Positions 1-58,547 of a stretch of 60,588 bases of DNA are shown piece after piece; position 1 is the stretch's first letter, and each line of letters opens with the position of its first letter. The notes below the pieces were generated by a model. The model saw nothing but the letters and a program-made list of their open reading frames with translations, made no database searches and was not told the origin of the DNA. The position numbers and the translations under genes were made by a program. Where the stretch lies: NCBI GenBank assembly GCA_043817155.1, contig JBDRHE010000075.1:1-60588 (forward strand), read 5' to 3'. The DNA comes from Candidatus Omnitrophota bacterium. GTDB taxonomy: Bacteria > Omnitrophota > Gorgyraeia > JABMRN01 > RBG-13-46-9.

Positions 1-57
1 CTTATAGCTTACGGCTTATGGCTTATAGCTCTCTAAGTCCTTCGAATAGTCCTTCGT
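1..57 (-). repeat. Partial periodic-arm element (AGCTATA/AGCCATA 7-mer family) cut by the window edge
   Basis: Reverse complement of 1-57 matches the arm at about 10883-10939 (acgaaggacgattcgaaggacttagagagctataagccataagccgtaagctataag) with 1 mismatch; also related to 4594-4650. Confidence 0.9.
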
Positions 58-59
58 GC

Positions 60-89
60 TTGACAATCTTTTGGCAAATGCTGTATACT
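60..89 (+). promoter_or_regulatory. Sigma70-type promoter upstream of ilvD
   Basis: TTGACA (60-65), 18-nt spacer, TATACT (84-89); AAGGAG RBS at 141-146. Confidence 0.7.
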
Positions 90-151
90 ATATTACTTAT
101 TAAGTATATTATGTCATAACATAATGATATATAGAGCTATAAGGAGTTAAC

Positions 152-1810
152 ATGAGAAGTGACAGAGTGAAGAAAGGTTTAGAGCGGATGCCGAATAGAG
201 CCCTTTTATATGCAACAGGTGTGTCACCATCTGATATGGCGAAACCCTTTATCGGCATTGCTTCGAGTTTCACGGATCTAATCCCCGGCCATGTCGGCAT
301 GAGGAGACTGGAGCGTTTCGCGGAGCGCGGTATTGCTGCAGGTGGAGGAGTGCCATTCATATTTGGGGTGCCCGGTATCTGTGACGGTATCGCGATGGGT
401 CATGTTGGCATGAAGTATTCGCTTGCTTCCAGAGAGCTGATCGCGGACATTATTGAGACAGTCTGCATGGCGCATCAATTGGACGGCCTGCTTTGTATTA
501 CCAACTGCGATAAGATCACTCCGGGAATGCTTATGGGCATCGCAAGGCTCAACATACCGTCGATCGTAGTGACTGCGGGGCCGATGATCTCGGGTAATTA
601 TAACTCCCTGCGCAGGAGTTTAGTAAGAGACACGTTTGAGGCAGTGGGCGCTTTTAAGGCCGAAAAGATCTCGAAGGAGGACATTGAATCCCTGGAACTC
701 TGCGCCTGTCCTGCTCAAGGGTCATGTCAGGGTCTCTATACTGCAAATTCCATGGCGTGCCTTACCGAAGCGCTCGGGATGAGTCTGCCGGGTTGTGGTA
801 CGGCATTAGCCGGATCCGCGAAGAAGGAGAGGATCACTTACGAATCAGGTGAGAAGGTTGTGAATTTGGCAAGAAGAAATGTTACGCCCAGAACGATTCT
901 TACACAGCAATCGTTCGAGAACGCTATAATGGTCGATATGGCGATCGGCGGGTCTACGAATACGGTTCTCCATCTTATGGCTATAGCCCATGAAGCTAAA
1001 GTTGATATAGATCTTAATCTATTTGACGAAATTAGCAGGAGGACTGCGCATATTACAAACTTAAGACCCGGCGGCGAACACTTCATGGAAGATCTCGAGT
1101 ATGCAGGAGGAATACCGGCTGTTATGAAGAGATTGATACAGACTATGAATAATGTCCAAACCTTAACAGGAAAGACTATAAGCCAAATAGCGGCCGGTAC
1201 GAAGATCTTTGACGAAGATGTGGTGCGTAGCATAAAGAACCCATATCATAAAGAGGGTGGCATATTTGTGCTAAAGGGCAACCTTGCCCCGGACGGAGCT
1301 GTTGTGAAGCAGTCCGCTATCGCAAGAGAGAATATGTGTTTTAAGGGAAACGCAAGGGTCTTTGAATCGGAAGAGTCGGCGATGGAGGCCATTCTCGGAA
1401 AGAAGATCAAAAAGGGTGATTGCGTTGTTATTAGATACGAAGGGCCGCGAGGCGGACCGGGTATGAGGGAGATGTTAGGCCCGACATCGGCAATTGCCGG
1501 TATGGGTTTGGGTGAGGACGTCGCGCTTATTACGGACGGAAGATTTTCAGGTGGAACGCGCGGTATAAGCGTGGGACATATTGCGCCTGAGGCAGCCAGC
1601 GGCGGTCCGATAAGCGTAGTGAAGGATGGAGACCAGATCGTTATAGATCTTAATAAAAGAAGCATAGATGTGAAACTTAGCCAGAGTGAATTGAGCGGCA
1701 GACTCGCTTCATGCAAAGAGCACGAACCGAAAATCAAGGAGGGGTATCTGGCAAGGTATGCGAAGCTGGTTGGCTCTGCAAGCAAAGGAGCGGTATTTAA
1801 CAGCGATTAG
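152..1810 (+). CDS. ilvD: Dihydroxy-acid dehydratase
   Basis: 552 aa; [34 protein letters not shown] and ITDGRFSG motifs. Confidence 0.97.
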
Positions 1811-2042
1811 CGGATAGGTTTAGGTTCGAAGAATTAAGTTAAGCGTATAGCGCATAGCGCATAGCGGATAGCGAATAGGTTCGAAGGATAAAGACTAGCG
1901 TTTAGCGATTAGCGTATAGCGGATAGGTTGGAATATTGCTTTTTTGAAACGTTAAGTACTAGCCTACACGCTAAACGCTATATGCTATCTGCTAAGTGTA
2001 AAATACTAACCTATACGCTATGTGCTATACGCTATACGCTAA
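1808..2042. repeat. Doubly nested periodic-arm palindrome (TAGCGTA/TAGCGCA 7-mers versus CTATACG/CGCTATA)
   Basis: Left arms at about 1808-1880 and 1896-1928, reverse-complement right arms at about 1961-1993 and 2009-2042. Confidence 0.9.
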
Positions 2043-2057
2043 AGATGGAGAATTAGT

Positions 2058-3743: not shown

Positions 3744-3962
3744 CTCGAAGGACGCACGTTACGATAGACGAAGGACGATTCGTGATTCCTCGTCTTTGCG
3801 AAGTGCCGTAATATACTAAGCGCACTGAAGCATCTCAAACTAGCTCGAATGAGATTGCCTGCCTGCCCGCCAAAGCTTTTAAATGGCAGGCGGGCCTGCC
3901 AGTATATTTCGGGCAGGCAGGCTTCGGCACGCTCGAATATTCCGGTGCCTCGCAAAGACGAG
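3741..3962. repeat. Composite: GACGAAG-type arm, then F1 inverted repeat (3789-3962) with a 64-bp CCTGCCTGCC...GGCAGGCAGG hairpin at 3858-3921
   Basis: ctcgtctttgcga...gaagca and gagattg[insert]cttcggcacg...tcgcaaagacgag arms; the insert is identical to 7750-7813 and 7869-7932. Confidence 0.95.
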
Positions 3963-3990
3963 GGAAGCATATAAGAAGCAGGAGAAGAAT

Positions 3991-4476: not shown

Positions 4477-4800
4477 ACAAAAGTCTACAGACTATAGACT
4501 AGAGACTAATGTGAGTAAGAAGGTTTCTTAAGGTTTCATAAAGTTTCTTGACGTTGCTTAAGGTTGCAAGACGGAAATGGGATACGTTAATGGACGAAGG
4601 ACGATTCGAAGGACTTAGAGAGCTATAAGTCATAAGCCGTAAGCTATAAGTAATGTGATATGATTTGAGCTTATAGCTTAAGGCTTAGAGCTTAAAGCTG
4701 TTAGTACAAGATATATACTATTGAAATACAGTTGAAAATACTTGGAACATTCCGAAGCTATAAGAGACTATAGTCTTTGGTCTGTAGTCTATGTTCTATG
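4477..4800. repeat. Nested composite: outer AGACTAT/TAGTCT arms (about 4478-4510 and 4766-4795) around a GTTTCTTAAG 10-mer arm, a GACGAAG arm, an AGCTATA palindrome and a TTGAAATAC run
   Basis: Read directly; 4592-4730 is repeated at 10881-11019 with 5 mismatches. Confidence 0.9.
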
Positions 4801-4832: not shown

Positions 4833-5819
4833 ATGGCAAAGGTTTATCGAGACAAAGATGCTAATCTGGAACTGATCAAGAAGAAGGTGGTGGCTATTAT
4901 TGGGTATGGCATACAGGGACGGGGACAGGCTCTAAATCTTAGGGATTCAGGGATAAAGGTTATCGTAAGCGAGCTCGAAGGTACGCAGAATTACAGGAAT
5001 GCGGTAAAAGATAAATTCAAACCCGTTTCAGCAGACATCGCGGCAAAGAGCGCCGACATTATACAGATATTAACACAGGACCATGTACAGGCAAAGGTGT
5101 ACAAGTCAATGATCGAACCGAATCTAAAAACCGGGAAAGCCCTGGTATTTTCGCACGGTTTTAATATCCATTTTAAGCAGATCGTGCCACCAAAATATAT
5201 TGATGTGTTTATGATAGCACCGAAGGGACCGGGAGCTTTAGTCAGACAGCAGTATGAAGAAGGCAAAGGCGTACCGTGTCTGGTGGCTATATATCAAAAT
5301 CCCTCAGGAAAAGCCCTGAAACTGGCGCTGGCTTATGCTAAAGGTATTGGCGGAACAAGGGCAGGAGTAATTAAGACCACCTTCAAAGAGGAGACCGAGA
5401 CTGACCTGTTTGGTGAACAAGCAGTTCTATGCGGTGGGGCATCGGAGCTTATTAAAGCCGGATTCGATACCCTGGTGAATGCCGGATATCAGCCGGAAAT
5501 TGCATATTTTGAGTGTCTTCACGAATTGAAACTGATAACGGATCTTATCTACAGATACGGTATTCAGGGTATGAGAAAGAGGGTTTCGGATACTGCAGAA
5601 TACGGGGATCTCAGCAGAGGAAGAAGGATAATTACACAGGAGACCCGGAAAGCCATGAAGACTATGCTAAGGGAAGTTCAGACAGGGAAATTCGCTAAAG
5701 AGTGGATAAAAGAGAATAGCAAAGGAAGGCCCCGGTTCAACAAATGGTCAAAAGCGGATGACAGGCATCCGGTAGAGGTGGTAGGCAAGAAACTCCGCAA
5801 GATGATGCCGTGGCTCTAA
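4833..5819 (+). CDS. ilvC: Ketol-acid reductoisomerase
   Basis: 328 aa; [20 protein letters not shown] and [16 protein letters not shown] motifs. Confidence 0.97.
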
Positions 5820-5833
5820 CGCTAGATAATTAA

Positions 5834-6121
5834 GCTACGATAGACGAAGGACGTGGGACGATTCGCTCTATCTCGTCTTTGCGAGGTGCCGTAAATAAAT
5901 TAGCGCACCGAAGCAAACTTCTGTCATCCCCGCGCAAGCGGGGATCCAGAGTGAACTCGTTGAGAGTGCATCCATGGATTCCCGCTTCCGCGGGAATGAC
6001 AACTTTAGATTGCTTCGGCACGTTCGAATATTCCGGTGCCTCGCAAAGACGGATAGGAGAAGATCTAATCGTCCATCGTCCAAGCGACCGTAAGGGAGCG
6101 GACGTCCGTCGTCCTTCGTAA
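5834..6121. repeat. Three-layer composite: GACGAAG arms (5834-5862, 6067-6121) around F1 arms (5872-5915, 6007-6050) around an F2 GTCATCCCCGCG...CGGGAATGAC palindrome (5923-6000)
   Basis: Each layer is bounded by its own inverted arms; a small extra hairpin-like insert gcgaccgtaagggagcg sits in the right outer arm. Confidence 0.95.
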
Positions 6122-6134
6122 CGGGGAGAGATGT

Positions 6135-7649
6135 ATGAAAGATAGAATCATAATATTCGATACAACACTAAGAGATGGTGAGCAGTCGCCCGGGGCAAGC
6201 CTCAACAATAAAGAGAAGCTCGAGATCGCAAAACAACTCGAAGCGCTCAATGTAGATATCATTGAAGCAGGATTTCCTATTTCGAGTCCCGGAGATTTCA
6301 ATGCCGTAAGGACCGTTGCCAGGGAGATAAAGAAAGTGGGGGTTTGCGCGCTTGCGCGTGCCGTGAAGGAGGACATAGATGCCGCCTACAGGGCTGTTAA
6401 ATATGCGAGGCGTCCGCGGATACACGTATTCCTGGCTACTTCAGAGATACACATGAAGTACAAACTGAAGAAGGCAAAGGGCGAGATCCTTAAGGCAGCC
6501 GTACAGGCTGTAAAATACGCCAGACGGAAAGTAAGCGATATTGAGTTCTCCCCGGAAGACGCGTCCCGTACTGAGAAGGAATTTCTCTATGAGGTTATCG
6601 AGGCGGTCATAGCTGCAGGCGCCGGAACGGTAAATATTCCGGATACGGTGGGTTATTCGGTACCCTATGAATTTGGTTTACTTATAAAGGGCATAAAGGA
6701 GAACGTGCCGAACATTGACAAGGCTATTATAAGCGTCCATTGTCACAACGACCTTGGTCTTGGAACCAGCAATTCACTCGCGGCCGCTTTGAACGGGGCG
6801 CGTCAGATCGAATGCACGATAAACGGTATTGGCGAAAGAGCCGGCAACGCATCTCTTGAAGAGATAGTCATGTCTATTGCTACAAGAAAGGACATCTTTA
6901 ACTTTGACACAAAGATAAGAGCAAAGAGGATTTATAAAACGTCCAGGCTGGTCAGCAAGCTTACCGGGATCACGGTCCAGCCGAACAAGGCTATCGTGGG
7001 CGCTAATGCCTTTGCTCACGAAGCCGGCATACACCAGGACGGGCTTTTGAAGGAGCGCAGGACCTACGAGATCATAAAGCCGGAGGACGTCGGGTTTCAG
7101 GAGACGAAGCTTGTGCTCGGTAAGCATTCAGGCAGGCACGCCCTAAAGGCGAGATTGAATAGGTTGGGGTATACGCTAAGCGATAAGGAACTACACGGGG
7201 CTTTTTTCAGATTTAAGAAGTTGGCTGATAAGAAGAAGGAGATCTTTGATGATGATCTTGCCACCATCGTGGAGGATGAGATAGGAACTACTCCTGAGAT
7301 CTATAAGATGGTCAGTTTCTATGTACTTAGCGGCAACAAGGTTACTCCAAGCGCAACGGTAACTTTAGAGCACAAGGGTAAGAATTTGATAGTTAACTCG
7401 ACAGGGGATGGTCCGGTTGACGCTTGCTATAAGGCGGTCGAAAAGATGGTGGATGTAAAGCCCAGGCTTCTGGCGTACAATCTGACCGCTGTTACAGCCG
7501 GTAAGGATGCTCTGGGTGAGGTCTCTGTAAGGCTAAAGATCGAAAAGCAAGAGGTAAACGGCAGGGGCGCCAGCACAGATGTCGTAGAAGCGAGCCTTAA
7601 AGCATATCTTAATGCTTTGAACAAGTACAAGCTGCTTAATAAGAGATAG
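6135..7649 (+). CDS. leuA: 2-isopropylmalate synthase
   Basis: 504 aa; DTTLRDGEQ, HCHNDLG, GIGERAGN, AHEAGIHQDG and a C-terminal regulatory domain (GDGPVDA). Confidence 0.96.
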   Translation: MKDRIIIFDTTLRDGEQSPGASLNNKEKLEIAKQLEALNVDIIEAGFPISSPGDFNAVRTVAREIKKVGVCALARAVKEDIDAAYRAVKYARRPRIHVFLATSEIHMKYKLKKAKGEILKAAVQAVKYARRKVSDIEFSPEDASRTEKEFLYEVIEAVIAAGAGTVNIPDTVGYSVPYEFGLLIKGIKENVPNIDKAIISVHCHNDLGLGTSNSLAAALNGARQIECTINGIGERAGNASLEEIVMSIATRKDIFNFDTKIRAKRIYKTSRLVSKLTGITVQPNKAIVGANAFAHEAGIHQDGLLKERRTYEIIKPEDVGFQETKLVLGKHSGRHALKARLNRLGYTLSDKELHGAFFRFKKLADKKKEIFDDDLATIVEDEIGTTPEIYKMVSFYVLSGNKVTPSATVTLEHKGKNLIVNSTGDGPVDACYKAVEKMVDVKPRLLAYNLTAVTAGKDALGEVSVRLKIEKQEVNGRGASTDVVEASLKAYLNALNKYKLLNKR

Positions 7650-7654
7650 GTATA

Positions 7655-7998
7655 AACGCAGATCGGCACAGGCTGTATTTCTCGTCTTTGCGAGGTGCCG
7701 TAAATAGCTGAGCGCACCGAAGCAATCTCAAACTAGCTCGATGAGATTGCCTGCCTGCCCGCCAAAGCTTTTAAATGGCAGGCGGGCCTGCCAGTATATT
7801 TCGGGCAGGCAGGCTTCGGCACGCTCGAATATTCCGGTGCCTCGCAAAGACGAGGAAAGATGAGATTGCCTGCCTGCCCGCCAAAGCTTTTAAATGGCAG
7901 GCGGGCCTGCCAGTATATTTCGGGCAGGCAGGCTTCGGCACGCTCGAATCTTACGGTGCCTCGCAAAGACGAGTTAAGCATCTGCGCTCATCTGTGTT
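7655..7998. repeat. CACAGAT/ATCTGTG outer arms around F1 with a tandemly duplicated right arm, each copy carrying the 64-bp insert
   Basis: F1 left arm 7681-7729; right arms 7743-7854 and 7862-7973. Confidence 0.95.
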
Positions 7999-8866: not shown

Positions 8867-9633
8867 TAATTATAGCTCTATTTATCGCAGGTACAATCAT
8901 AGGCAGCTTCATGAATGTATGTATTTACAGGTTGCCCGGAGGTGAGTCCATAATAAAGCCGCGGTCGCGGTGCATCTCTTGTGGTAAAGCGATAGCATGG
9001 TTTGACAACATTCCCATTTTGAGTTTCCTTGCGCTGCGTGGCAGGTGTAGATCCTGCAAGAAGACGATCTCCATCAGGTATCCGATAGTCGAGATCATAT
9101 CAGGGATTATGTGCGCTTTGCTCTTTACGTACTTTGGATTTACAGCAAAGTCTTTTATACTCCTGGTCTTTTCGTGCGCGCTTGTCGTAGTGTCATTTAT
9201 AGACTTTGCTATCCAGGAGATACCGGATGTTATCACATTGCCCGGCATTGTCATAGGATTGATATCGGCAGCGCTCTTTCCGTCTCTGGTAGGCAGCCCC
9301 GATAATATATCTGCATTCTTCAACTCTTTTCTGGGGGTCCTGGCCGGCGGAGGAACGATATACATACTTGGATTTGTAGGCGAGTTTATATTTAAGAAAG
9401 AGGCAATGGGCGGGGGCGACGTTAAGCTCCTGGCGATGATAGGCGCGTTCATCGGGTGGAAACTGGCCATATTTACCTTCTTTTTGGCACCCTTCTTCGG
9501 CGCTGCAGTGGGGATCACACTGAAGCTAAAAGATGGCAGGGAGATAATACCCTACGGCCCATATCTTTCGCTTGCAGCTATCGTTGCAATATTTTACGGC
9601 GATGCGGTTATTGGGAAACTGTTTATTCTGTAA
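8863..9633 (+). CDS. pilD: Prepilin peptidase
   Basis: GSFMNVCIYRLP, two CxxC pairs, IDFAIQEIPD, MGGGDVKL and IPYGPYL. Start placed at ATG 8863, overlapping the aroE stop. Confidence 0.93.
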   Translation: MIIIALFIAGTIIGSFMNVCIYRLPGGESIIKPRSRCISCGKAIAWFDNIPILSFLALRGRCRSCKKTISIRYPIVEIISGIMCALLFTYFGFTAKSFILLVFSCALVVVSFIDFAIQEIPDVITLPGIVIGLISAALFPSLVGSPDNISAFFNSFLGVLAGGGTIYILGFVGEFIFKKEAMGGGDVKLLAMIGAFIGWKLAIFTFFLAPFFGAAVGITLKLKDGREIIPYGPYLSLAAIVAIFYGDAVIGKLFIL

Positions 9634-9696
9634 GTAGCGAGTAGAGAGTAGCAAGTAGCGAGAATTTCGCTAATCTCTACTTGCTACTCGCTACTT
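9632..9696. repeat. AGTAGCG/AGTAGAG 7-mer periodic palindrome (F5)
   Basis: agtagcgagtagagagtagcaagtagcgaga, loop, ctctacttgctactcgctact; also at 27912, 37289 and 40861. Confidence 0.93.
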
Positions 9697-9728
9697 TCGA
9701 AATCATTTGTTATAGGAAGGAGTCCAGT

Positions 9729-10865: not shown

Positions 10866-11361
10866 GCTACGTAAGACGTGGGACGAAGGACGATTCGAAG
10901 GACTTAGAGAGCTATAAGCCATAAGCCGTAAGCTATAAGCAATGTGATATGATTTGAGCTTATAGCTTAAGGCTTAAAGCTTAAAGCTGTTAGCACAAGA
11001 TATATACCATTGAAATACATTGATATGCAATTGAGATACATTGAAATACGGTGGATGATATGTACTACTCGTCTTTGCGAAGTGCCGTAAATAAGTTAGC
11101 GTACCGAAGCAATGCTCCACTCGTCTTTGCGAGGTGCCGTAATATACTAAGCGCACTGAAGCATAATTTGTCATTCCCGCGCAAGCGGGAATCCATGGAT
11201 GCACTCTCGATGAGTCAACTCTGGATCCCCGCTTTCGCGGGGATGACATGTGAGAAATAAGGGAATGACACGATATGAAGGTATCCACGGCGATTATTTA
11301 CATGGAAATAAATGGAAGATCTAATCGTCCATCGTCGGCACGTCCGTCGTCCTTTGTAACG
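10866..11361. repeat. About 500-bp composite: GACGAAG arms around an AGCTATA palindrome, a 10-mer TTGAAATAC run, two F1 left arms (11068-11113, 11120-11163) and an inverted F2 (11170-11247)
   Basis: Read directly; each module recurs elsewhere in the window. Confidence 0.93.
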
Positions 11362-14844: not shown

Positions 14845-14922
14845 TGTTTAGCGATCTTCGTCTAGTCTATGGCGTTAGAGGGAACCTTATTCGCGATCCG
14901 CGATCCGCAATACGAAAATGCT

Positions 14923-15795: not shown

Positions 15796-16146
15796 CTCGA
15801 AGGAGTAACGTTACGACGGACGTAAGACCCTCCTTCGCTTGGCAGGAAGAATCTCATGGAAGTGGGCTACGGAGGGCAAGTGTGGGAAGAAGGACGATTA
15901 GCGCTATCTCGTCTTTGCGAGGTGCCGTTAATAGGTAAGCGTACCGAAGCAATTTGTCATTCCCGCGGAAGCGGGAATCCAGGCGGAAATGACAAATACA
16001 TTAGAAAGATACACTTCTGGATCCCCGCTTCCGCGGGGATGACAGAATAGTGGAGATTGCTTCCTCCTTCGCCACATTGCTTCTGCGTGTGGCTTGGGAG
16101 AGACAAGCCGGCACGTTCGAATTTTCCGGTGCCTCGCAAAGACGAG
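15793..16146. repeat. Composite: GACG-type arm with a REP-like insert (15829-15881), F1 left arm (15908), F2 (15956-16043) and F1 right arm with a second REP-like insert (16064-16109)
   Basis: The interrupted host motifs can be rebuilt from intact copies (cgtaagacgtgggacg at 10870; gagattgcttcggcacg at 17619/44222). Confidence 0.92.
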
Positions 16147-16183
16147 GGAAATACGATCGTTTAAGGCAACCAGGACAACAAAG

Positions 16184-17461
16184 ATGATAATATACGACAT
16201 ATTTTTCTTCGCCTTTTCGATCGTTTACCTTCCGTACATGATCATAAAAGGGAAGGCGCACAAGGATCTTGGCCAGAGGTTCGGAAAGCTGCCGGAAGCG
16301 TTTAAAGCTCTAGGCAAGACGAACCCTGTGTGGATACACGCTGTAAGCGTGGGGGAAGTCATCGCGGTAAAGAACTTCATAGGAGCTATACAGCGAAAAT
16401 TTCACGGAAAAAAGATCATCCTTTCAACTACGACGAGAACCGGTAATGAGATCGCGCGAAAAATACTGGGCGACGAGATATTAAAGTTCTATTTTCCGCT
16501 GGATTTCAGCTTCATTGTGAAACGCGCATTGGACTGTCTTAACCCTAGGTGCTTTATCATGATGGAGACCGAGATCTGGCCGAATCTCATTTTAGAATTG
16601 GCCGAAAGAAAGATACCCATTATTCTTATTAACGGCCGGATATCCAGGAGATCATTTGGTGGATATAGCAGGATAAAAATATTTTTTGAAAAGATCTTAA
16701 AAAAGGTGGATCTATTTTGTATGCAGACTGAAAGCGACGCTCGACGCATACAAGCCCTGGGTGCGCGCGAAGAGAATATAAGGGTATCCGGTAATATGAA
16801 ATTTGATATTCCTCTAACGGGCGAAAAATACGAGAAGACAAAAGCGGCTCTCGGGATAGACGAAGAGAGCCAGCTTCTTATAGCCGGAAGCACCCATAAA
16901 GGCGAAGATGAGATCATTCTTGAGGCATATAAGAGGGTCGCACGTAAATTTAATAATTTAAGGCTGCTTCTTGCTCCAAGGCACATAGACCGGTCACGCG
17001 CCATCAAAAGGCTCGTTACACGATATGGATTTCACGGCGAATTCTTCTCGGATGTTGTCTCATCTTCCGCAGTGTCGGAAAATAAGGAAGCTGTCCTGAT
17101 CTTAGATACGCTGGGAGAACTTAGCAAGCTTTATAGCCTGGCAACTATCGTATTTATGGGAGGCACCTTTGTGAAGAGAGGAGGGCACAATATCATAGAG
17201 CCCGCGGTATTTGGTAAGCCTATCCTCTTCGGGCCGCATATGTTCAATTTCAGGGATATGGCGAAGTCCTTCCTGGAAGGGGATGCGGCCATTAGGGTTA
17301 GGGATGGCCATGAATTATCGGAAGTAATAGAAGGGCTCTTAAAGGATAAAGATAGGAGATCGGCCTTAGGAGAGAACGCATTAAGGCTACTTAGGAGATC
17401 GCGGGGCGCTACCGAGAGGAACATAGCGGCGGTCGGACCGTATATAACGAAGATTTTGTGA
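16184..17461 (+). CDS. waaA: Kdo transferase
   Basis: WIHAVSVGE, METEIWPN, IAGSTH, LAPRH and GGHNIIEPA. Start placed at ATG 16184 because the ORF-track N-terminus is repeat-derived. Confidence 0.95.
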   Translation: MIIYDIFFFAFSIVYLPYMIIKGKAHKDLGQRFGKLPEAFKALGKTNPVWIHAVSVGEVIAVKNFIGAIQRKFHGKKIILSTTTRTGNEIARKILGDEILKFYFPLDFSFIVKRALDCLNPRCFIMMETEIWPNLILELAERKIPIILINGRISRRSFGGYSRIKIFFEKILKKVDLFCMQTESDARRIQALGAREENIRVSGNMKFDIPLTGEKYEKTKAALGIDEESQLLIAGSTHKGEDEIILEAYKRVARKFNNLRLLLAPRHIDRSRAIKRLVTRYGFHGEFFSDVVSSSAVSENKEAVLILDTLGELSKLYSLATIVFMGGTFVKRGGHNIIEPAVFGKPILFGPHMFNFRDMAKSFLEGDAAIRVRDGHELSEVIEGLLKDKDRRSALGENALRLLRRSRGATERNIAAVGPYITKIL

Positions 17462-17514
17462 GATATACTTTCTGTACAGTCACCACGTTACCCGTTAACG
17501 GAAGATTCACACGT

Positions 17515-17757
17515 TATGACGGACGATGGACGAAAGACGATGGACGATTCAATTCCCTCGTCTTTGCGAGGCACCGTAAAATTCGAGCGTGCCGAAGCAA
17601 TCTCATTCGAGCTAGTTTGAGATTGCTTCGGTGCGCTAACCTGTTTACGGCACCTCGCAAAGACGAGATAGCGCGAATCACCCTTTGTCCCTCTTCCATC
17701 ATCCATCTTAAGTTTACTATTAAATTCACGTCTCATGTGTCTTGTGTCCTTGTGTCG
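17515..17757. repeat. GACGATG arms around an F1 in the opposite orientation (17557-17667), plus a CTTGTGTC arm
   Basis: The ggcac/gtgcc arm comes first and the ggtgc/gcacc arm second; empty loop. Confidence 0.92.
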
Positions 17758-17780
17758 TAGATAAAAATAGGGTTTGCATT

Positions 17781-22502: not shown

Positions 22503-22700
22503 ACTAAAGACTAAAAACTATAGACCATCGTTCGTGTCCAAATGAGTTGTACCATATCGACGGAAATAGCGTTTTGACATTCGAAACTTTGTCATGACTG
22601 CTTTTCTCACATGTCATCCCCGCGCAAGCGGGGATCCAGGCGAGAGTTTTGTCTGGATTCCCGCTTCCGCGGGAATGACAAAAAGCTAATTTGGACAGCA
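22502..22700. repeat. AGACTA-type arm and a free-standing F2 palindrome (22613-22679) inside a short gtccaaat/atttggac inverted repeat
   Basis: gtcatccccgcgcaagcggggatcc ... ggattcccgcttccgcgggaatgac. Confidence 0.9.
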
Positions 22701-22726
22701 ATGATAGAACATAGTAAACTAAAAAG

Positions 22727-26753: not shown

Positions 26754-26866
26754 AAAAACCAAAGACCAAAAGGTAAAAACCAAAAACACATATTAAATAT
26801 GAAAAAATATTTTTTTTGCATTTTTGGTTTGTATTTTTGGTATTTGGTATTTAATTTTTAATTTTT
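26754..26866. repeat. AT-rich AAAACCA/TTTTGGT periodic palindrome (F7)
   Basis: Second copy at 31775-31905; shared core aaaacacatattaaatatg. Confidence 0.88.
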
Positions 26867-26879
26867 CGATAATTCGATC

Positions 26880-27980: not shown

Positions 27981-27989
27981 AAAGAAAAT

Positions 27990-30755: not shown

Positions 30756-30763
30756 CATCGCCT

Positions 30764-31777: not shown

Positions 31778-31905
31778 AACCAAAAACCAAATACTAAAAA
31801 CAAAAAACACATATTAAATATGTAAAAACTTGGTAAATTACAAATTAAAGATTTTAAAATTTTTGGTTTGTGTTTTTAACTTTTGGTATTTAATTTTTAA
31901 TATTT
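31775..31905. repeat. F7 AT-rich periodic palindrome, copy 2
   Basis: Homologous to 26754-26866. Confidence 0.88.
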
Positions 31906-31943
31906 CATTAAAGCTACACAAGCTGTAAAGAAAGGTTAGAGCA

Positions 31944-34512: not shown

Positions 34513-34535
34513 CAAGGACACAGGGATTGGTAGTT

Positions 34536-34850
34536 AAGCTACGAAGGGCGTGGGATGATTAGCACTATCTCGTCTTTGCGAGGTGCCGTAAATAAATTAG
34601 CGCACCGAAGCCCCGCCGCATGTTTCGCATAGCGGGATCCCGCCATACGAGAGTAACGGCGGGACAATCTCAAACTTCTGTCATCCCCGCGAAAGCGGGG
34701 ATCCAGAATAGGCGCGTAGAGAGTCCATCCATGGATTCCCGCTTACGCGGGAATGACAAGATGCATTAACCTGAGAATACTTCGGCACGCTCGAATCTTA
34801 CGGTGCCTCGCAAAGACAGTTAGGTTAATATCTAGTCGTCCATCGTATCG
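34536..34850. repeat. Composite: GACG-type arms around F1 (34569-34817), with a 54-bp double hairpin in the left arm (34611-34664) and F2 (34680-34757) in the loop
   Basis: cgaag[cccgc...gcggg a tcccgcc...ggcggga]caatctc. Confidence 0.92.
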
Positions 34851-36496: not shown

Positions 36497-36591
36497 ATAT
36501 CTGTGCAATCAAAACGATAAAAGCTAGCAAAATCTGTGTAATCTCCTTGATATCTGTGTAATCAAATAAACAAAATCTGTGTAATCAGTTT
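36497..36591 (+). repeat. Four direct copies of ATCTGTG(C/T)AATC separated by variable short spacers
   Basis: Read directly; the same unit occurs at 38175-38212, 44431-44450 and 46055-46083. Confidence 0.85.
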
Positions 36592-37275: not shown

Positions 37276-37288
37276 AGAAATATTGCGA

Positions 37289-37422
37289 AAGTAGCAAGTA
37301 GAAAGTAGCCCTTCGCTTCGCTCAGGATCCCTCGAAGAATTCATCGAAGGATCCCGAGAGAATCGAGGGAGAAGTAGCGAGAATCTCTCTACTCTCTACT
37401 CTCTACTTGCTACTCGCTACTT
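37289..37422. repeat. F5 palindrome interrupted by a CCCTTCGCTTCGCTCAGG...TCGAGGGA hairpin cassette (about 37309-37370)
   Basis: Compared with intact F5 copies at 9632 and 27912. Confidence 0.88.
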
Positions 37423-37437
37423 TCGGAAAGAGATGTT

Positions 37438-37833: not shown

Positions 37834-37835
37834 GG

Positions 37836-37937
37836 TTACTTAATGTTTCTGGAGGTTTCAGGATGTTTCTTGAGGTTGCATTGTTCGTATTTGCAACCTT
37901 AAGAAACCTTAAGCAACGTCAAGAAACTTAAAGAAAC
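37836..37937. repeat. 10-mer periodic palindrome (GTTTCTTAAG versus CTTAAGAAAC)
   Basis: The right arm is closely related to the reverse complement of 4525-4569. Confidence 0.88.
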
Positions 37938-38076
37938 TTTTATGTATAAGGCCGAAAAGATATTTTATGAGGTCGACCCGCACAACAGGCCGGTCCTAAA
38001 ATCCGGCATTCGCTCCGCGGTCAAGAGATGCCGCTTTAACAAATCCGCTTAAACAGATTTTTTGTCACTAAGCGAT

Positions 38077-38215
38077 GCAATCTGATATTACACAGATCAG
38101 GCTTACCCCAACGCGCTCGGATATTTGTTGCTCGACATCCGTGCAATCAAAGCGCTACTTTCGCTACATAATCTGTGTAATCAAACCATATATACTACAC
38201 ATAATCAGTGTAATC
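38077..38215. repeat. TTACACAGAT/ATCTGTGTAA inverted arms with an internal spacer
   Basis: Read directly. Confidence 0.8.
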
Positions 38216-38275
38216 ACGCTCCGTTTTGTATTGCATACCCGCCGCCTATATGATAATATATGAAGCTATAAACAG

Positions 38276-40832: not shown

Positions 40833-40860
40833 TATAATTTGTCTTCCGATAATACACGTA

Positions 40861-41034
40861 AAGTAGCGAGTAGAGAGTAGCAAGTAGCAAGAAAGACTCA
40901 CTCTACTCTCTGCTTGGCATTTTGAAGGATACGCTAAAAGAGATATATATACACAGATGAACAAGTAAGTAGCGAGAAGAGAGTAGCAAGTAGCAAGAAA
41001 GACTCACTCTACTCTCTGCTTGCTACTCGCTACT
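40861..41034. repeat. Two direct F5 copies separated by a 49-bp diverged copy of the aminotransferase 3' end
   Basis: 40912-40960 matches 44052-44100 at 46 of 49 positions. Confidence 0.92.
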
Positions 41035-41050
41035 TTAAAAAGAATAAAAA

Positions 41051-43014: not shown

Positions 43015-44100
43015 ATGAAGAAACATTACCTGCTAACTCCCGGACCTGCGCAGATGCCAGAAGATATTTTGGAGAGCATGGGAAGGCCCATAATACATCA
43101 CAGAACCCAGCAATACAGGGATATTGTTAAGTCCGCGAACGAGAATCTTAAGAAGGTATTTAAGACCACCAGGAACGTGCTGACCTTTACTTCGAGCGGA
43201 ACAGGCGCCATGGAAGCAAGCGTGGTCAACACGCTTTCGAAAGGTGATACGGCAATAGTGGTAAGGGGCGGAAAGTTTGGCGAGAGATTCGATGAGATAT
43301 GCCGGGCTTACGGTGTCGAGGTAGTTGTCGCTGATGTTACGTGGGGCGAAAGGCCTGAAGCGCGGACCATAGACGTTCTACTACAGAAGCATCCTGATAC
43401 GAAGGCCGTGTTTATGCAACTGTGCGAAACCTCAACAGCTACCGTATACGATGTGGAAGCGATCGGTAAGGTTGTAAGCAAGACCCCAGCCATTCTAGTA
43501 GTCGATGCGATAAGCGGCCTGGGATCCGATGAATTCAAGATGGATGAGTGGAACGTGGATGTCGCTATAGGCGGATCGCAGAAAGGATTTATGCTACCAC
43601 CCGGCCTTTCTTTCTGCGCGGTAAGCGAAAAGGCCTGGAACCTGGTTAAGAAGTCGACACTCCCTAAGTACTATTACGATTTTTTATTCTACGAGAAACT
43701 TATGGGTAAATCCGACAGCCCGTTCACGCCCGCCATAACGCTCGTTATCGGTCTGGAGAAAGCAATGTCTGCGATCGTGGCTGAAGGGGTGGACGCTTTT
43801 ATCAGAAGGCACCGGGAAGACGCCCGGTACGTGCGTGAGACTATCAAAGAGATGGGACTTACGCTCTTTTCCAGGTTTCCGTCAGATGCTGTTACGGCCG
43901 CAAATATACCGGGCCCGGTAGATGGCGCTAAACTACTAAGCTCGCTTAAGTCTAAAGGCGTTACGCTGGCAGGCGGACAGGCTGAACTTAAAGGTAAGAT
44001 CTTTAGGATCGCTCAGATGGGCGGTATTACTCGAAAGGATTTAGAATTCGCGCTTGGCATTTTGAAGGATACGCTGAAAGAGATATGGATACACAGATGA
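43015..44100 (+). CDS. Class V PLP aminotransferase (serine-pyruvate/alanine-glyoxylate type; probably the phosphoserine aminotransferase role next to serA)
   Basis: LLTPGP, SSGTGAMEA, CETST, VDAISG, GSQKGFMLPPG and SPFTP. Confidence 0.9.
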   Translation: MKKHYLLTPGPAQMPEDILESMGRPIIHHRTQQYRDIVKSANENLKKVFKTTRNVLTFTSSGTGAMEASVVNTLSKGDTAIVVRGGKFGERFDEICRAYGVEVVVADVTWGERPEARTIDVLLQKHPDTKAVFMQLCETSTATVYDVEAIGKVVSKTPAILVVDAISGLGSDEFKMDEWNVDVAIGGSQKGFMLPPGLSFCAVSEKAWNLVKKSTLPKYYYDFLFYEKLMGKSDSPFTPAITLVIGLEKAMSAIVAEGVDAFIRRHREDARYVRETIKEMGLTLFSRFPSDAVTAANIPGPVDGAKLLSSLKSKGVTLAGGQAELKGKIFRIAQMGGITRKDLEFALGILKDTLKEIWIHR

Positions 44101-44452
44101 GCACAGATGGGTAAGCTACGAAGGACGATGGACGAAGGACGAAGACGAATTGTAATTGCTCGTCTTTGCGAGGAACTTATGAAAGCTTTATGTTCCGAAG
44201 CAATCTCAAACTAGCTCGAATGAGATTGCTTCGGCACACTCGAATTTTACGGTGCCTCGCAAAGACAGGGTTAGATGAGATTGTCCCGTCACACGCAAGT
44301 AGCGTCGGGAAAGAAGAAAGCAAGCCAAAGTCTATAGTCTTCAGTCTGTAGTCTTTAGTCTATAGTCTGGCTTAGAGCTTAAGGCTAAATTTAATTTATT
44401 AGAATTCTGCGTCATTCGTGTTTAAACGTTAGATCTGTGCTAATCTGTAGTT
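44088..44452. repeat. Composite: CACAGAT outer arms around a GACGAAG arm, F1 (44159-44266), an orphan GAGATTG plus TCCCG...CGGGA hairpin (44284-44310), and TAGTCT and GCTTA arms
   Basis: Read directly. Confidence 0.9.
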
Positions 44453-49362: not shown

Positions 49363-49540
49363 GTCACAGATGAGCGCAGATTTTATTACAAGGCACTGTA
49401 ATACTCGAAACGTGACTAAGTAATTCCTGATTCGTCTTTGCGAGGCACCGAAATATTCGAGCGTGCCGAAGCAATCTCTGCGAGCTAGTCTGAGATTGCT
49501 TCGGTGCGCTAAGTGATTTACGGCACCTCGCAAAGACGAA
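49363..49540. repeat. CACAGAT arm plus an empty F1 in the inverted orientation (49431-49540)
   Basis: Same arrangement as 17557-17667. Confidence 0.92.
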
Positions 49541-49584
49541 GTGTAGTATTGATTACGTTTGTGCACAATAAAAAAGGAGAGTAA

Positions 49585-51717: not shown

Positions 51718-51952
51718 TAGTTTAGCTTTCTAGCTTCTTAGCTTTTTAGCTTTTTAGGAAATTGTAGAAGTTTATTATCGATCAGAGCTTTAGCTTCTTA
51801 GCTTACTAGCTTTTTAGGAAATTTAATGTGAACAGAATCTTACCTAATAAGCTAACAAGCTAGGAAGCTAAGAAGCTAAAACGTTAATCAACTCAACCTG
51901 AGAAGCTAAAAAGCTAATGCTCTAAGTAGCTAGAATAGAAGCTAAAGCTCTG
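51718..51952. repeat. Double periodic palindrome (TAGCTTT/TAGCTTC versus AAGCTAA 7-mers)
   Basis: Two left arms (51718-51757, 51783-51817) and two right arms (51843-51880, 51898-51952). Confidence 0.9.
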
Positions 51953-51987
51953 CTTAACAGATTTTTAGTTTTGGTAGTCATAAAGTC

Positions 51988-52016
51988 TTGACTTAAGAAT
52001 ATACAGGTGTTATATT
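51988..52016 (+). promoter_or_regulatory. Sigma70-type promoter with extended -10
   Basis: TTGACT (51988-51993), 17-nt spacer, TGt-TATATT (52011-52016). Confidence 0.65.
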
Positions 52017-52109
52017 TAGCTTAATACTTAATGTATAAACTATCGATAAACCGAACCCACATTAACCAAAAACCTAATAAGCCAGTAAGCTAAAGGAGAA
52101 GGAGGCGTT

Positions 52110-56630: not shown

Positions 56631-56795
56631 ACCCCGCCTCCCAATAGTCTTATTCTACCAGGCTTAGCTTGTGTCCCAACTTTGAGCGCGCGTTTAAGCC
56701 GGACAGAGATTCTGTCAGCCGAAAGATTTTTGACCGCCTCCGGCAGTCACCGTCTCTTCTCTTTTTGTTTAACCGAGCAAGACATGCTGTTAGTA

Positions 56796-56995
56796 AGAGA
56801 CAATGGGGCATTATTTTAAGGCTCAGCATAAAATGTTATGCCAAGATTCTCCCCTCTTGTCTCTTTATAAGGTGATCGTCGGATTAAAGGAATTGCCGTA
56901 AGCCAAGGCACACGAAAACCTGGAATACCGACTCTCACCTTGTAAAGAGACAAAGAGAGAATATTCGCCTTAAAAGAACGCCCCATTGCCTCTCT
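56796..56995. repeat. Long hairpin element, copy 2
   Basis: 46 identical nt with copy 1 (56919-56964 equals 30575-30620); its own terminal arms match each other at 24 of 27 positions. Confidence 0.88.
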
Positions 56996-57020
56996 CTAGA
57001 GGTCTCTTAATACTCAGAAA

Positions 57021-57250
57021 GAAGAAGAACAGAATTCAAAGGGGCCCCATTTGAAAATGTTAGCCTTTTATTGAGATGAGAAGAGGTTTTATTTGTAAGA
57101 ACATTTTCATACAAAAAGGATGCCGCAATGTTTGAGCCCCACACCTTTGGTGTGGGGCGAGTTCGGCATCCCCTCTTTTTATCTCAATAAAAGGCGTTAC
57201 CTAATCAAGTGAGGTAAACATTTTCTGGGGAATGAATTCTGTTCTTCTTC
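57021..57250. repeat. 230-bp multi-layer inverted repeat
   Basis: Perfect 18-bp (57021-38/57233-50) and 15-bp (57063-77/57181-95) inverted repeats around ggatgccg/cggcatcc and a gccccacacc-ttt-ggtgtggggc hairpin. Confidence 0.9.
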
Positions 57251-57448
57251 GCATAGGAAATAGAATTAATTTATAACAGCTAATTTATATTCCTTGCAAT
57301 CGAGGAGGGCAATTCTTCTTATCAGATTATTATCAGAATGTCTCTCATGAATCCAAGCTGCTCCATGACTGGTTAAGTGACAGGTTATGGGAAAAGGCTT
57401 GAGGATTAACGGCTATTATGCTATATTTAGCCGATAGGGAGATGAGCA

Positions 57449-58525
57449 ATGATAGGAAGGCGTAAGACAAGGGTTGTAAAGGTTGGGGGTGTGAAGATAG
57501 GGGGGAGCAATCCCATCTCTATCCAATCGATGACTACGTCAGATACCAGGGATATAGGAAAGACCGTCTCCGCGATAAAGAGGCTGGAAAAGGCCGGATG
57601 CGAGATTGTAAGGGTAGCGGTTAAAGATCTCGAGGCCGCCCGGGCAATAAAGCGCATAAAACGAAAGATCCGCATTCCGCTCGTGGGAGATATCCATTTT
57701 GATTACAGGCTCGCTCTTGAATCGATAAAGAGCGGCGCCGATAAGATCCGTATAAATCCCGGAAATATTACAAAGCCAGAGCATTTAAAGGAGATAATTG
57801 AAGCGGCAAAGAGACGAAGGATCCCGATCCGAATCGGTTTAAATTCCGGTTCTCTGCCGCACCGAAGCACCGAAGGTGCGAAGGCGGGCCCGCACACTGA
57901 TGTATTTATCAAAACTGCGCTTAAGCATATAAAACTATTTGAAAGCCATCGTTTCGATGATATAATAATTTCACTGAAATCTTCCCGGGTTCCGGAGATG
58001 GTTGATGCGTACAGAAGACTGGCCGGCCTTTGCGATTACCCTTTTCACGTTGGGGTAACGGCGGCAGGCCCTTATGATGTCGGGGTTGTGAAGTCCAGTA
58101 TTGGCATAGGCGCTCTTCTCCTTAACGGAATAGGTGATACGGTGCGTGTCTCTTTAACAGGCGATCCGGTGAATGAAGTAGTATCCGCAAAGTATATTCT
58201 TCAGGCGACCGGAAGACGGGAATTTGGTCCTGATATTATATCCTGCCCGACATGCGGGCGTTGTCAGGTCGACCTGGCTTATATCGTAACGAGAGTGGAA
58301 GAAAAGCTAAACGCAATACGCAATACGCAGAGCGCAAAACGGATAAAAAGTGTAGCTTTAATGGGTTGTGAAGTAAACGGTCCGGGAGAGGCAAAGGAAG
58401 CGGATATCGGGATCGCGTTCGGTAAAGACGCAGGAGTTATATTCATGAAGGGGAAGATAGTCAAAAGGGTGCGTGCAAAGAATGCAGTACGCGAATTATT
58501 ACACCTTGTTTCGAAAGCAATTTAG
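57449..58525 (+). CDS. ispG: 4-hydroxy-3-methylbut-2-en-1-yl diphosphate synthase
   Basis: IQSMT, VGDIHFD, RINPGN, DTVRVSL, SCPTCGR and MGCEVNGPGEA. Confidence 0.96.
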   Translation: MIGRRKTRVVKVGGVKIGGSNPISIQSMTTSDTRDIGKTVSAIKRLEKAGCEIVRVAVKDLEAARAIKRIKRKIRIPLVGDIHFDYRLALESIKSGADKIRINPGNITKPEHLKEIIEAAKRRRIPIRIGLNSGSLPHRSTEGAKAGPHTDVFIKTALKHIKLFESHRFDDIIISLKSSRVPEMVDAYRRLAGLCDYPFHVGVTAAGPYDVGVVKSSIGIGALLLNGIGDTVRVSLTGDPVNEVVSAKYILQATGRREFGPDIISCPTCGRCQVDLAYIVTRVEEKLNAIRNTQSAKRIKSVALMGCEVNGPGEAKEADIGIAFGKDAGVIFMKGKIVKRVRAKNAVRELLHLVSKAI

Positions 58526-58547
58526 CCACCCACTTTAGTGGGTGGTG
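58523..58547. repeat. Hairpin AGCCACCCACTTTAGTGGGTGG resembling an IS200/IS605 subterminal palindrome
   Basis: Perfect 8-bp stem ccacccac/gtgggtgg with a ttta loop; the IS200/IS605 resemblance is from recall. Confidence 0.6.

Follow-up and report, generated by a model that had tools for sequence, protein, structure and literature searches.

Introduction

The closest described relatives of the repeats reported here are the CGTC-tagged repetitive extragenic palindromic (REP) sequences surveyed by Di Nocera, De Gregorio and Rocco in 2013 (PMC3733652). Their CGTC-1 family, which includes Neisseria dRS3 and Rickettsia RPE-6, is defined by the tag CGTC (TGTC and CCTC being allowed), an 8-bp stem with A-T as its first two positions, a 4-nt loop and a CCA tail, and its members are mostly extragenic head-to-head dimers with many copies per genome (PMC3733652). 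Here we analyse a 60,588-bp stretch of a Candidatus Omnitrophota genome (hereafter the window), in which the spacers between genes are filled with nested palindromes of this type and of several others. An earlier sequence-only reading of the window had assumed that REP-type repeats usually come as one or a few families. This proved too narrow, as several REP families may share a genome, mosaic clusters occur in Neisseria, and REP dimers lie inside other palindromes in Anabaena variabilis, Halothiobacillus neapolitanus and Thermomicrobium roseum (PMC3733652).

Escherichia coli bacterial interspersed mosaic elements (BIMEs) and Neisseria intergenic mosaic elements (NIMEs) combine inverted REP units with short motifs between co-directional or convergent genes, mostly as linear alternations of few motifs; NIMEs are built on dRS3. 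BIMEs bind integration host factor, gyrase or DNA polymerase I, and dRS3 is a target of insertion sequence (IS) or phage integration. For cyanobacteria, Mazel reportedly described heptamer tandem repeats (short tandemly repeated repetitive sequences, STRR) in 1990, and Elhai is said to have reported in 2008 the small dispersed repeats (SDR) of Nostoc, tiny mobile repeats inside heptamer arrays and inside each other. Further heptamers are GGGAATC of Xanthomonas and GGGGA(C/T)T of Nostoc (PMC4692102), TAACTGA of Beggiatoaceae (PMC4679880), and the MTYCTGA and GGACCGG sites of Geobacter metallireducens (PMC2700814). REPINs are inverted REP doublets that form a long hairpin, are non-autonomous and reach high copy numbers; in classical REPINs the tag is GTAG, and the genome contains one matching copy of a REP-associated tyrosine transposase (RAYT) gene with the same REPs on its flanks (Bertels and Rainey 2011, PMC3116915; Nunvar et al. 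2010, PMC2817692; Quentin et al. 2018, PMC6006769). REPINs inserted into REPINs offer a precedent for nesting.

Compared with these systems, the window is a REP/BIME/NIME-type mosaic, very dense and many-layered, and not a new kind of system; the mechanism put forward below is our proposal. We consider it probable, though by no means assured, that it records a lineage-specific bloom of non-coding REP/BIME (REPIN-like) palindromic repeats. What is new is the host phylum, a REP family with long units (F1), the use of at least seven heptamer-hairpin families as shells, and the nesting depth (4-5) and density.

Results and discussion

Spacers are filled with palindromic repeats

We defined spacers as stretches of more than 45 nt between genes, with open reading frame (ORF) starts corrected by Pfam coordinates. 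The window contains 26 such spacers with a sum of 7802 nt (12.9% of its length), and hairpin-forming palindromic modules are present in 24-25 of them. The palindromes noted originally are thus there, in fewer spacers than the "about 30" first counted. The module map distinguishes at least 14 repeat families and a nesting depth of up to 4-5. The proposed number of at least a dozen families therefore holds, but they are not all unrelated, as F1 and F2 are both REPs tagged with CGTC, and there is overlap between the units GTAGCNA and TAGCGNA. Statements on nesting, copies and enzymes in this genome refer to the 60-kb window throughout. The families are:

Periodic arms, period 7: GACGAAG, GTAGCNA, TAGCGNA, AGCYRTA, AGACTAT, CACAGAT, AAAACCA
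Periodic arms, period 8: TAGCTTNN
Periodic arms, period 10: AAGGTTTCTT
Non-palindromic: GAAATAC tract, period of about 10.5 nt
Others: F1, F2, F3 and F4; a 60-nt palindrome at 37310-37372; the pair at 30446 and 56791; a nested inverted repeat at 57015-57250

Five relatives (L001/L179, L002, L055/L056, L057 and L178) share the gene order of the entire window; their spacers measure -4 to about 140 nt, and non-coding DNA makes up 2.9-3.3% (L178, L179) as against 12.9% in the window. The difference is evident at individual junctions:

ilvD-ilvB: window 247 nt; relatives -4 to 12 nt
ilvB-ilvN: window about 248 nt; relatives -4 to 3 nt
ilvC-leuA: window 315 nt; relatives -4 to 19 nt (L001: 136)
aroC-aroK: window 523 nt; relatives -4 to 21 nt
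kpsF-HAD: window 424 nt; relatives -1 nt
aminotransferase-serA: window 368 nt; relatives 13 or 42 nt
H+-PPase-ompA: window 401 nt; relatives 17 or 62 nt
rseP-ispG: window 818 nt; relatives -4 nt

Because five syntenic relatives have compact spacers, those of the window were filled within this lineage. The comparison of orthologous spacers, which the sequence-only reading had named as a check on turnover, thus came out in favour of turnover. Simple hairpins do occur in the relatives: the leuA-aroE spacer of L001 and L055 consists wholly of a TAGCGGA heptamer hairpin, L001 has an AAAAATC hairpin 3' of ilvC, and L179 has an AGCY-type hairpin 3' of purA.

The periodicity of the spacers is far from random. 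Against a first-order Markov model, we counted 38 period-7 tracts where 1.5 were expected, nine period-8 tracts (0.15 expected) and three period-10 tracts (0 expected), while tracts of period 6, 9 and 12 were absent from the spacers. As 36 of the 38 period-7 tracts fall into the 12.9% of the DNA that is spacer, they behave like intergenic heptamer simple-sequence repeats of the STRR kind. Period-7 tracts within genes, at the start of xerC (14887-14917) and close to the ispG end (58302-58336), could have arisen by chance or be insertions of old date. Folding supported two composites that had been singled out at the outset. The stretch 5834-6121, read as GACGAAG arms around F1 around F2, indeed forms one nested hairpin (DNA fold -85.6 kcal/mol, z -11.2), and 44088-44452, described as CACAGAT arms around five other modules, has that composition in the module map and also folds as a single nested hairpin (z -7.5). 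Within the former composite, the F1 and F2 dimers fold as single hairpins, as the long hairpins of REPINs do. A search of the whole window against Rfam at the gathering threshold, and of 30300-30800 and 5800-6150 at an E-value threshold, gave no credible match.

The inner layers are CGTC-tagged REP dimers

F2 consists of the units TGTC-ATCCCCGC-GNAA-GCGGGGAT-CCA and TGTC-ATTCCCGC-GNAA-GCGGGAAT-CCA with their tags pointing outward. All six F2 dimers are head-to-head and lie in spacers, and the two units of a dimer always differ (ATCCCCGC versus ATTCCCGC). Each of the 12 units starts with TGTC, has an 8-bp stem starting with AT (ATCCCCGC/GCGGGGAT or ATTCCCGC/GCGGGAAT) and a 4-nt loop (GCAA, GGAA, GAAA or GTAA), and ends in CCAG or CCAT. 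Judged by tag, stem, loop, tail and extragenic head-to-head arrangement, F2 is a CGTC-1 REP of the Neisseria dRS3 type, and so belongs to the REP family on which NIMEs are built.

In F1, two differing copies of a longer CGTC-tagged unit, CGTCTTTGCGAGG-[inner hairpin]-CCGAAGCAATCTC, stand head to head. The basic form of F1 measures 107 nt and is present in three copies (17556-17668, 44158-44270, 49430-49541); altogether, 22 F1 unit heads were found across 10 spacers. The left and right units differ from one another identically in every copy. Like CGTC-tagged REPs, F1 has the tag, a pairing inner stem and head-to-head heterodimers with a structured spacer. What sets F1 apart from CGTC-1 is the much greater length of its unit, in which a two-part stem and a GA/GAA internal loop accompany a variable inner hairpin (14-20-nt loop here). 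With 45-50 nt in the window (34-56 nt elsewhere) as against the stem-loop of 20-40 bp that defines the CGTC superfamily, the F1 unit matches none of the four described CGTC families. The GTAG (GT[AG]G) 5'-foot tag of REPINs is carried by neither dimer: F1 and F2 have CGTC/TGTC, and GTAG occurs only in the GTAGCNA heptamer arms.

The F1 unit frame recurs in JGI metagenome contigs, at least 120 in number, whose G+C ranges from 34 to 69%. Among the matches listed, 83 distinct units contain 72 different inner sequences that still pair (inner closing stem 4.0 bp versus 2.3 bp when shuffled), and 53% of the F1-type units have an inverted partner within 200 nt. Since the frame is identical across contigs of such different base composition while the inner stem covaries, the pattern suggests a conserved protein partner. 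A 24-nt pattern specific to the F1 of the window gave no matches in the metagenome scan, and a 19-nt F1 head pattern was unspecific in the scan of genome contigs (at least 31 mostly chance matches), of which only L023 and L032 were useful. Given the structure of both dimers and the wide distribution of the F1 frame, F1 and F2 are best regarded as REP dimers (REPIN-like) and not as new kinds of element.

The sequencing depth of these units is high. In data from run X1, the depth was 3-7 on unique DNA and 430-940 on F1/F2 units (up to 944 for F2), which suggests copy numbers in the hundreds, although part of the depth may stem from other members of the community.

Related units were also seen in phage DNA. 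The F1 variant GTCATTGCGAGG...GCAATC is present in phage contigs, and the IMG/VR contigs L034, L038, L040, L042, L044, L047 and L052 contain REP units of the CGTC type, also as dimers (GTCATTGCGAG...GCAATC). These contigs encode capsid and portal proteins, and the units follow a conserved, coding-like sequence ending in ...GTTACTTTCAC.

Two smaller elements reside within F1. F3 is a clean 64-nt insertion in the right unit, between GAGATT and GCTTCGG and with GC on both flanks; it was seen three times, once as a tandem duplicate, and is missing from basic F1. F4 occupies the mirror-equivalent site CCGAAG^CAATCTC of the left unit. Clean targeted insertion at one site of the F1 unit, as judged from these junctions, thus applies to F3 and probably to F4. 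The F3 copies contain a terminator-like hairpin, TGGCAGGCGGGCCTGCCA, followed by the T-rich GTATATTT (3884-3901, 7776-7793, 7895-7912), and their GC-rich segments permit alternative pairings.

The outer layers are hairpins with periodic arms

Rather than loose microsatellites, the outer layers are hairpin elements of 70-100 nt that are dispersed and have tandem 7-, 8- or 10-mer arms, several of which are one-sided or degenerate. The GTAGCNA hairpin is present in five copies of 84-93% identity, the AGCY hairpin in at least three and the AAAACCA hairpin in two. The GTAGCNA hairpins at 9630 and 27912 are empty and those at 37286 and 40860 filled. The GACGAAG family has the conserved termini GTTACGA...TCGTAAC. 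An empty GACGAAG hairpin with identical termini was found in another Omnitrophota metagenome-assembled genome (MAG; L023:5622-5719), about 850 nt from a BIME-like cluster of F1-type units.

Heptamers and CGTC dimers also meet in unrelated contigs. In L051:5540-5660 (65% GC) a head-to-head CGTC REP dimer is directly followed by CCGTCCT heptamers, and in L096:2224-2389 (69% GC) AGCAACA heptamer arms surround a head-to-head dimer. This recurrence hints at a mechanistic link, with enrichment tests that were not significant. Heptamer tracts occur at 0.60 per kb near REP units in other contigs versus 0.16 per kb, a comparison confounded by the intergenic location of both; and CGTC or GTAG tetranucleotides are found in the heptamer units of two of nine families, where a rough estimate would predict about 0.11 per family. 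A "three-frame stop" role of the periodic arms was rejected, the excess of stop triplets being weak against a chance expectation of 0.41-0.53.

The direct repeats GAAATAC/TTGAAAT (29005-29085, 11005-11060, 4715-4740) are phased at about 10.5 nt and always stand between a GACGAAG left arm and F1. By analogy with BIMEs, this phasing, which equals the helical repeat of DNA, could indicate bent DNA or a site for a nucleoid protein.

Layers follow a constant order

In the module map, the layers follow the order {CACAGAT, AGACTAT} > GACGAAG > {AGCY hairpin, GAAATAC} > F1 > {F2, F3, F4}. The constant order noted by the sequence-only reading stands, as no enclosure is reversed in any spacer of the window. 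The individual spacers are composed as follows (coordinates along the forward strand):

1-57: right half of an AGCY-heptamer hairpin and GACG-type arm, truncated by the window start, upstream of the ilvD promoter; reverse complement of 4592-4650 and 10885-10940
1838-2045: ilvD-ilvB spacer, TAGCGNA heptamer hairpin within a second TAGCGNA hairpin
3744-3965: GACGAAG left arm, then F1 head-to-head dimer (3788-3963) with F3 (3858-3921); no right GACG arm
4480-4800: AGACTAT arms (4480-4511, 4765-4800) enclosing a AAGGTTTCTT tract, a GACG left arm, an AGCY hairpin (4621-4699) and a GAAATAC motif; the stretch 4592-4730 recurs nearly identically at 10881-11055
5834-6121: three layers, GACGAAG arms (5834-5868, 6062-6121) > F1 (5871-6054) > F2 dimer (5922-6001)
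7658-7997: CACAGAT-like arms enclosing F1 (7680-7855) with F3 (7750-7813), then an extra right F1 unit and second F3 (7858-7974)
9630-9698: simple, empty GTAGCNA heptamer hairpin beginning at the pilD stop codon
10868-11357: GACGAAG arms (10868-10905, 11318-11357) enclosing an AGCY hairpin (10909-10988), a GAAATAC tract, two F1 left units (11068-11165) and a reversed F2 dimer (11169-11248); no right F1 unit in this spacer (10857)
15810-16147: interrupted GACG left arm, then F1 (15908-16147) with F2 (15955-16044) and an extra 60-nt insert in the right unit; no right GACG arm in this spacer (15796)
17510-17750: GACG arms (right one degenerate) enclosing basic 107-nt F1 in reverse orientation (17556-17668), inside a spurious 100-aa ORF
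22500-22726: solo F2 head-to-head dimer (22612-22680) downstream of an AGACTA-like tract
26755-26870: AAAACCA heptamer hairpin; second copy at 31776-31909
27912-27981: simple GTAGCNA hairpin overlapping the heptosyltransferase stop codon
28980-29372: GACG arms enclosing a GAAATAC tract (29005-29085), a solo F1 left unit (29092-29128) and F1 (29143-29332) with F2 (29200-29279)
30446-30652: perfect 30-nt inverted arms enclosing a 147-nt stretch whose core recurs at 56826-56970; no Rfam match
34535-34850: degenerate GACG arms enclosing F1 (34568-34821) with F4 (about 34613-34666) and F2 (34679-34758)
37286-37424: GTAGCNA hairpin whose left arm holds a 60-nt palindromic insert (37310-37372)
37843-37940: hairpin with AAGGTTTCTT arms, period 10
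40860-41036: tandemly duplicated GTAGCNA hairpin enclosing a copy (40913-40960) of an aminotransferase gene 3' end and CACAGATGA
44088-44452: CACAGAT arms (44088-44110, 44428-44452) enclosing a GACG left arm, basic F1 (44158-44270), a small hairpin (44283-44312), an AGACTAT right-arm tract (44327-44370) and an AGCY fragment
49365-49541: CACAGAT left arm, then basic F1 in reverse orientation (49430-49541)
51718-52095: self-nested hairpins with TAGCTTNN arms, period 8
56791-57250: second copy of the 30480-type core with other outer arms (56791-56998), then a three-level nested inverted repeat (57015-57250)

The elements at 30446-30652 and 56791-56998 are thus two copies of a 145-173-nt core in different outer inverted arms. 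The ORF at 17458-17760 (100 aa, GTG start) consists entirely of repeat sequence (GACG arms and F1) and has no Pfam match; it is likely a false gene call in annotations of such genomes.

F2 sits centrally in F1 in both orientations, and F1 sits centrally in GACGAAG hairpins and, separately, in CACAGAT arms. The F1[F2] composites have only two types of junction: all three copies with forward F2 share the junction ACTTCTGTCAT (two of the three also ATGACAACTTTAGATTGC), and both copies with reversed F2 share AATTTGTCATT. Five GACG[F1] composites have the main junction GGACGATTxGxxCTAT|CTCGTC in common. The shared junctions, together with the near-identity of 4592-4730 to 10881-11055, show that nested composites were copied as units. 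Such copying accounts for most of the repetition of the layer order, and the number of independent nesting events is small, perhaps around ten and not dozens. The sequence-only reading had proposed that the families use one another as preferred landing sites. This part survives at a single F1 site, where it holds for F3 and probably also for F4; for the remainder, few independent events and the copying of composites replace it. Copy identity declines from inside to outside, from 96-97% for F2 units and 91-92% for F1 units to 88.5% for GTAG hairpins and 83.6% for GACG arms, a gradient that fits older shells and younger cores.

Some structures look different. F1 units are duplicated at 7858-7974 (right unit and F3), 11068-11165 (left units) and 29092-29192 (tandem left units). 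At 44083-44110, a CACAGAT arm encodes the last five residues of the aminotransferase, IWIHR, and its stop codon; the orthologues end in KNLKV or EDVKL, and the protein has their length despite its arm-derived C-terminus. From their architecture, the duplicated GTAG hairpin, the duplicated F1 units and the merger of CACAGAT with a gene appear to be products of recombination and not insertions.

Proposed mechanism and alternative explanations

In the bloom that we propose, hairpins of 70-100 nt with tandem 7-, 8- or 10-mer arms would first occupy the spacers. Head-to-head heterodimers of CGTC-tagged REPs (F1, F2) would then settle in the hairpin centres, and the small GC-rich hairpins F3 and F4 would enter one specific site of the F1 unit. 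Copying of the composites to more spacers would yield the constant "Russian doll" order. REP/RAYT and IS200/IS605 suggest, by analogy, that the copies may spread in trans via single-stranded hairpin DNA processed by an enzyme whose gene lies elsewhere, the candidate being a HUH-Y1 nuclease of the RAYT or IS200-IS605 type, for which hairpin centres and specific stem sites could be accessible targets. Imprecise recombination or template switching would contribute too. Insertions would persist solely where they are tolerated, in the intervals that separate a stop codon from the following ribosome-binding site. All modules of the window do lie in these intervals, in agreement with the earlier statement that the elements keep to spacers; and, as also stated, they encode no enzyme, as none of the spacers contains a Pfam-bearing ORF.

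Several observations count against this proposal. A Pfam search of the ORFs found no transposase or other mobile-element enzyme in the 60.6-kb window. The ORFs beside related units are phage structural genes in one tally of 150 and housekeeping genes in the other; Y1_Tnp is not in the best 25 of 38 and the best 25 of 140 Pfam families of these tallies, among which a single match could hide. For the HUH or DDE transposases that the sequence-only reading had named as movers of REP/BIME elements and MITEs, no candidate tied to the elements was found in the window or among the families listed for the ORFs beside related units, and no dedicated transposase is known for CGTC REPs (PMC3733652). We found no relative closer than about 80% protein identity, no orthologous pair of empty and filled alleles, and no transposition event seen directly. 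The right junction of F1[F2] is not that of a clean insertion into the loop of basic F1. At 40913-40960, about 40 nt of the 3' end of an aminotransferase gene (stop codon, CACAGATGA; source 44052-44100) lie three genes upstream of their source, so that flanking gene sequence was co-copied and at least some copying was imprecise. Finally, heptamer tracts are over-represented in the intergenic DNA of many bacteria, where polymerase slippage has been proposed (PMC4692102), and the periodic arms could likewise grow in place.

Slippage is also the starting point of an origin that needs no transposase, in which the arms grow by slippage, palindromes form by fold-back or template switching and arm-to-arm conversion, and recombination spreads them between spacers. 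The recombination-like products at 40860-41036, 7858-7974, 11068-11165 and 29092-29192, the arm that has merged with a gene's final codons, the F2 right flank within F1, which looks "symmetrised" to the left flank, and the lack of an enzyme among the families listed beside related units are all in line with it. What it does not explain is the constancy of the dimers: because the left and right units differ identically in every copy, F1 and F2 were not remade by fold-back each time. F3 is, moreover, a clean 64-nt insertion, the termini of a hairpin family are conserved in a different MAG (L023), the base-conserved F1 frame in contigs of 34-69% GC suggests recognition by a conserved protein, and copy numbers are apparently in the hundreds. 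We regard this origin as unlikely and rank it below the idea that the hairpins are functional elements selected by the host, with nesting as a by-product, which is itself improbable in our view. As functional elements they might stabilise or process mRNA 3' ends, act as attenuators, bind nucleoid proteins or gyrase as BIMEs do, or insulate translation; they might be kept for uncoupling genes that are translationally coupled in relatives. Their position between stop codon and ribosome-binding site, several starting at or overlapping the stop codon, would suit such roles, as would the three terminator-like hairpins with T-rich tails in F3, the stop triplets in the left arms of 8-9 of 10 periodic families (in all three frames in six of the 10), and the persistence of heptamer hairpins at the leuA-aroE spacer of two relatives. 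Roles of REPs in mRNA stability and termination are established (PMC3733652), and the multicopy heptanucleotide sites of Geobacter were interpreted as regulator binding sites (PMC2700814). However, at these junctions the relatives cope with -4 to 20 nt between genes, predicted promoters and terminators are not in excess over shuffles, the stop-triplet excess is weak, and the spacer RNA folds with -2810 kcal/mol on the plus strand and -2755 kcal/mol on the minus strand, giving no sign of selection on the transcript strand. Selection for function would also leave the near-identical dispersed copies and the clean insertions unexplained.

That the composites are assembly chimeras from collapsed or mis-joined short repeats is very improbable, even though high-copy repeats of 60-110 nt do break Logan unitigs at F1 and F2. 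Two public studies (biofilm and groundwater metagenomes; runs X1-X3) contain the same organism at low depth, and unique pieces of their unitigs (150-500 nt, depth 2-7) match the window with 0-1 mismatch. These unitigs, made by another assembler, reproduce boundaries between unique DNA and repeats. A 508-nt X1 unitig covers the complete TAGCG-nested spacer 1592-2099 with 0-1 mismatch, and others match parts of spacer 37834-38275 (37863-38117 with 0 mismatches). Five relatives, each assembled independently, have the same gene order across the 26 spacers, like architectures are seen in the unrelated contigs L023, L096, L051 and L060, and the nested hairpins are too regular for random mis-joins (z -11). 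The composites are thus very unlikely to be artefacts, a concern that had been raised at the outset. From the low-depth unitigs of 150-500 nt in X1-X3, no alternative empty or filled alleles were callable at strain level.

A bolder extension of the proposed bloom would make the short-period, mostly heptamer hairpins a distinct mobile class coupled mechanistically to REP enzymes, their arms serving as iterated cleavage or guide sites (e.g., CGTCC every 7 nt beside CGTC-tagged dimers, here and in L051) and the hairpins as self-renewing "safe-harbour" pads, with hierarchical targeting across phyla that involves REP dimers and GC hairpins and spares genes. We hold this to be a long shot.

Relation to other repeat classes

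Beyond the REP families already compared, the window shares with BIMEs and NIMEs the mosaic of inverted REP units and short motifs between co-directional genes. This holds for 24-25 spacers, in a concentric and not a linear arrangement, with short-period tandem-repeat hairpins as outer layers. Omnitrophota are absent from the host phyla listed for CGTC-tagged REPs (PMC3733652), in which nesting of 4-5 levels together with periodic-arm hairpins is likewise a difference. As in known intergenic heptamer repeats, period 7 is enriched in intergenic DNA and some tracts form inverted pairs; in the window, however, at least seven heptamer families coexist, and nearly all are hairpins with defined ends that occur as dispersed near-identical copies and form the outer shell for REP dimers. 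Miniature inverted-repeat transposable elements (MITEs) are similarly short, gene-less and multi-copy, have inverted ends, lie in spacers and are sometimes nested. Unlike MITEs, the elements here have arms that are internally periodic or REP units and not transposase-binding terminal repeats. No parent IS with matching ends was found in the window or, among the families listed, beside related units, and no consistent target-site duplication was seen at GACG, GTAG or F1 elements; only the 2-nt GC flanks F3.

Genes and host of the window

The window has 46% G+C and a positive GC skew over its full length. Its roughly 51 genes are housekeeping genes; all long ORFs lie on the plus strand and are co-directional. 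They cover amino-acid and aromatic biosynthesis (ilvD, ilvB, ilvN, ilvC, leuA, aroE, aroC, aroK, serA), DNA and cell functions (pilD, dprA, topA, xerC, tig, clpP, purA, H+-PPase, ompA-like, rseP), the envelope (kdtA, lpxK, lpxL, heptosyltransferases, kdsB, kdsA, kpsF, lptC, lptB), queuosine (queD, queC, queE, queF) and isoprenoids and lipids (uppS, cdsA, dxr, ispG). The best named matches of LeuA and SerA are Candidatus Omnitrophota MAGs with 76-83% identity; there is no exact record of the LeuA protein, and nothing closer than these matches is on record.

Upstream of ilvD, at 60-89, lies a near-consensus sigma-70 promoter (TTGACA, 18-nt spacer, TATACT), the sole strong promoter match in the first 20 kb. 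This conserved promoter has a counterpart in L002 (4100-4209), where a similar TTGACA...TATACT arrangement precedes ilvD. Transcripts of the gene runs probably read through the elements. The 12-mer ATCTGTG[TC]AATC stands in four direct repeats upstream of the radical-SAM gene queE (36499-36586) and in three or four copies, one of them inverted, upstream of lpxL (38086-38215); these arrays look like operator arrays rather than hairpins.

Conclusions

The window extends CGTC-tagged REPs to Omnitrophota and indicates that REP-type repeats can strongly reshape a small, compact genome, in which tightly packed genes have been separated and non-coding DNA has increased fourfold. Such spacers break short-read assemblies and yield spurious ORFs such as 17458-17760, which is relevant to the annotation of MAGs. 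The conserved frame and covariation of F1 point to a conserved protein partner for CGTC REPs, a question that has stood since 2013, and the regular pairing of REP dimers with heptamer hairpins offers a concrete starting point for explaining why repeats of period 7 abound in bacterial intergenic DNA. If the bolder extension set out above were true, heptamer hairpins, REP dimers and GC hairpins would together form a targeting system that keeps insertions out of genes.

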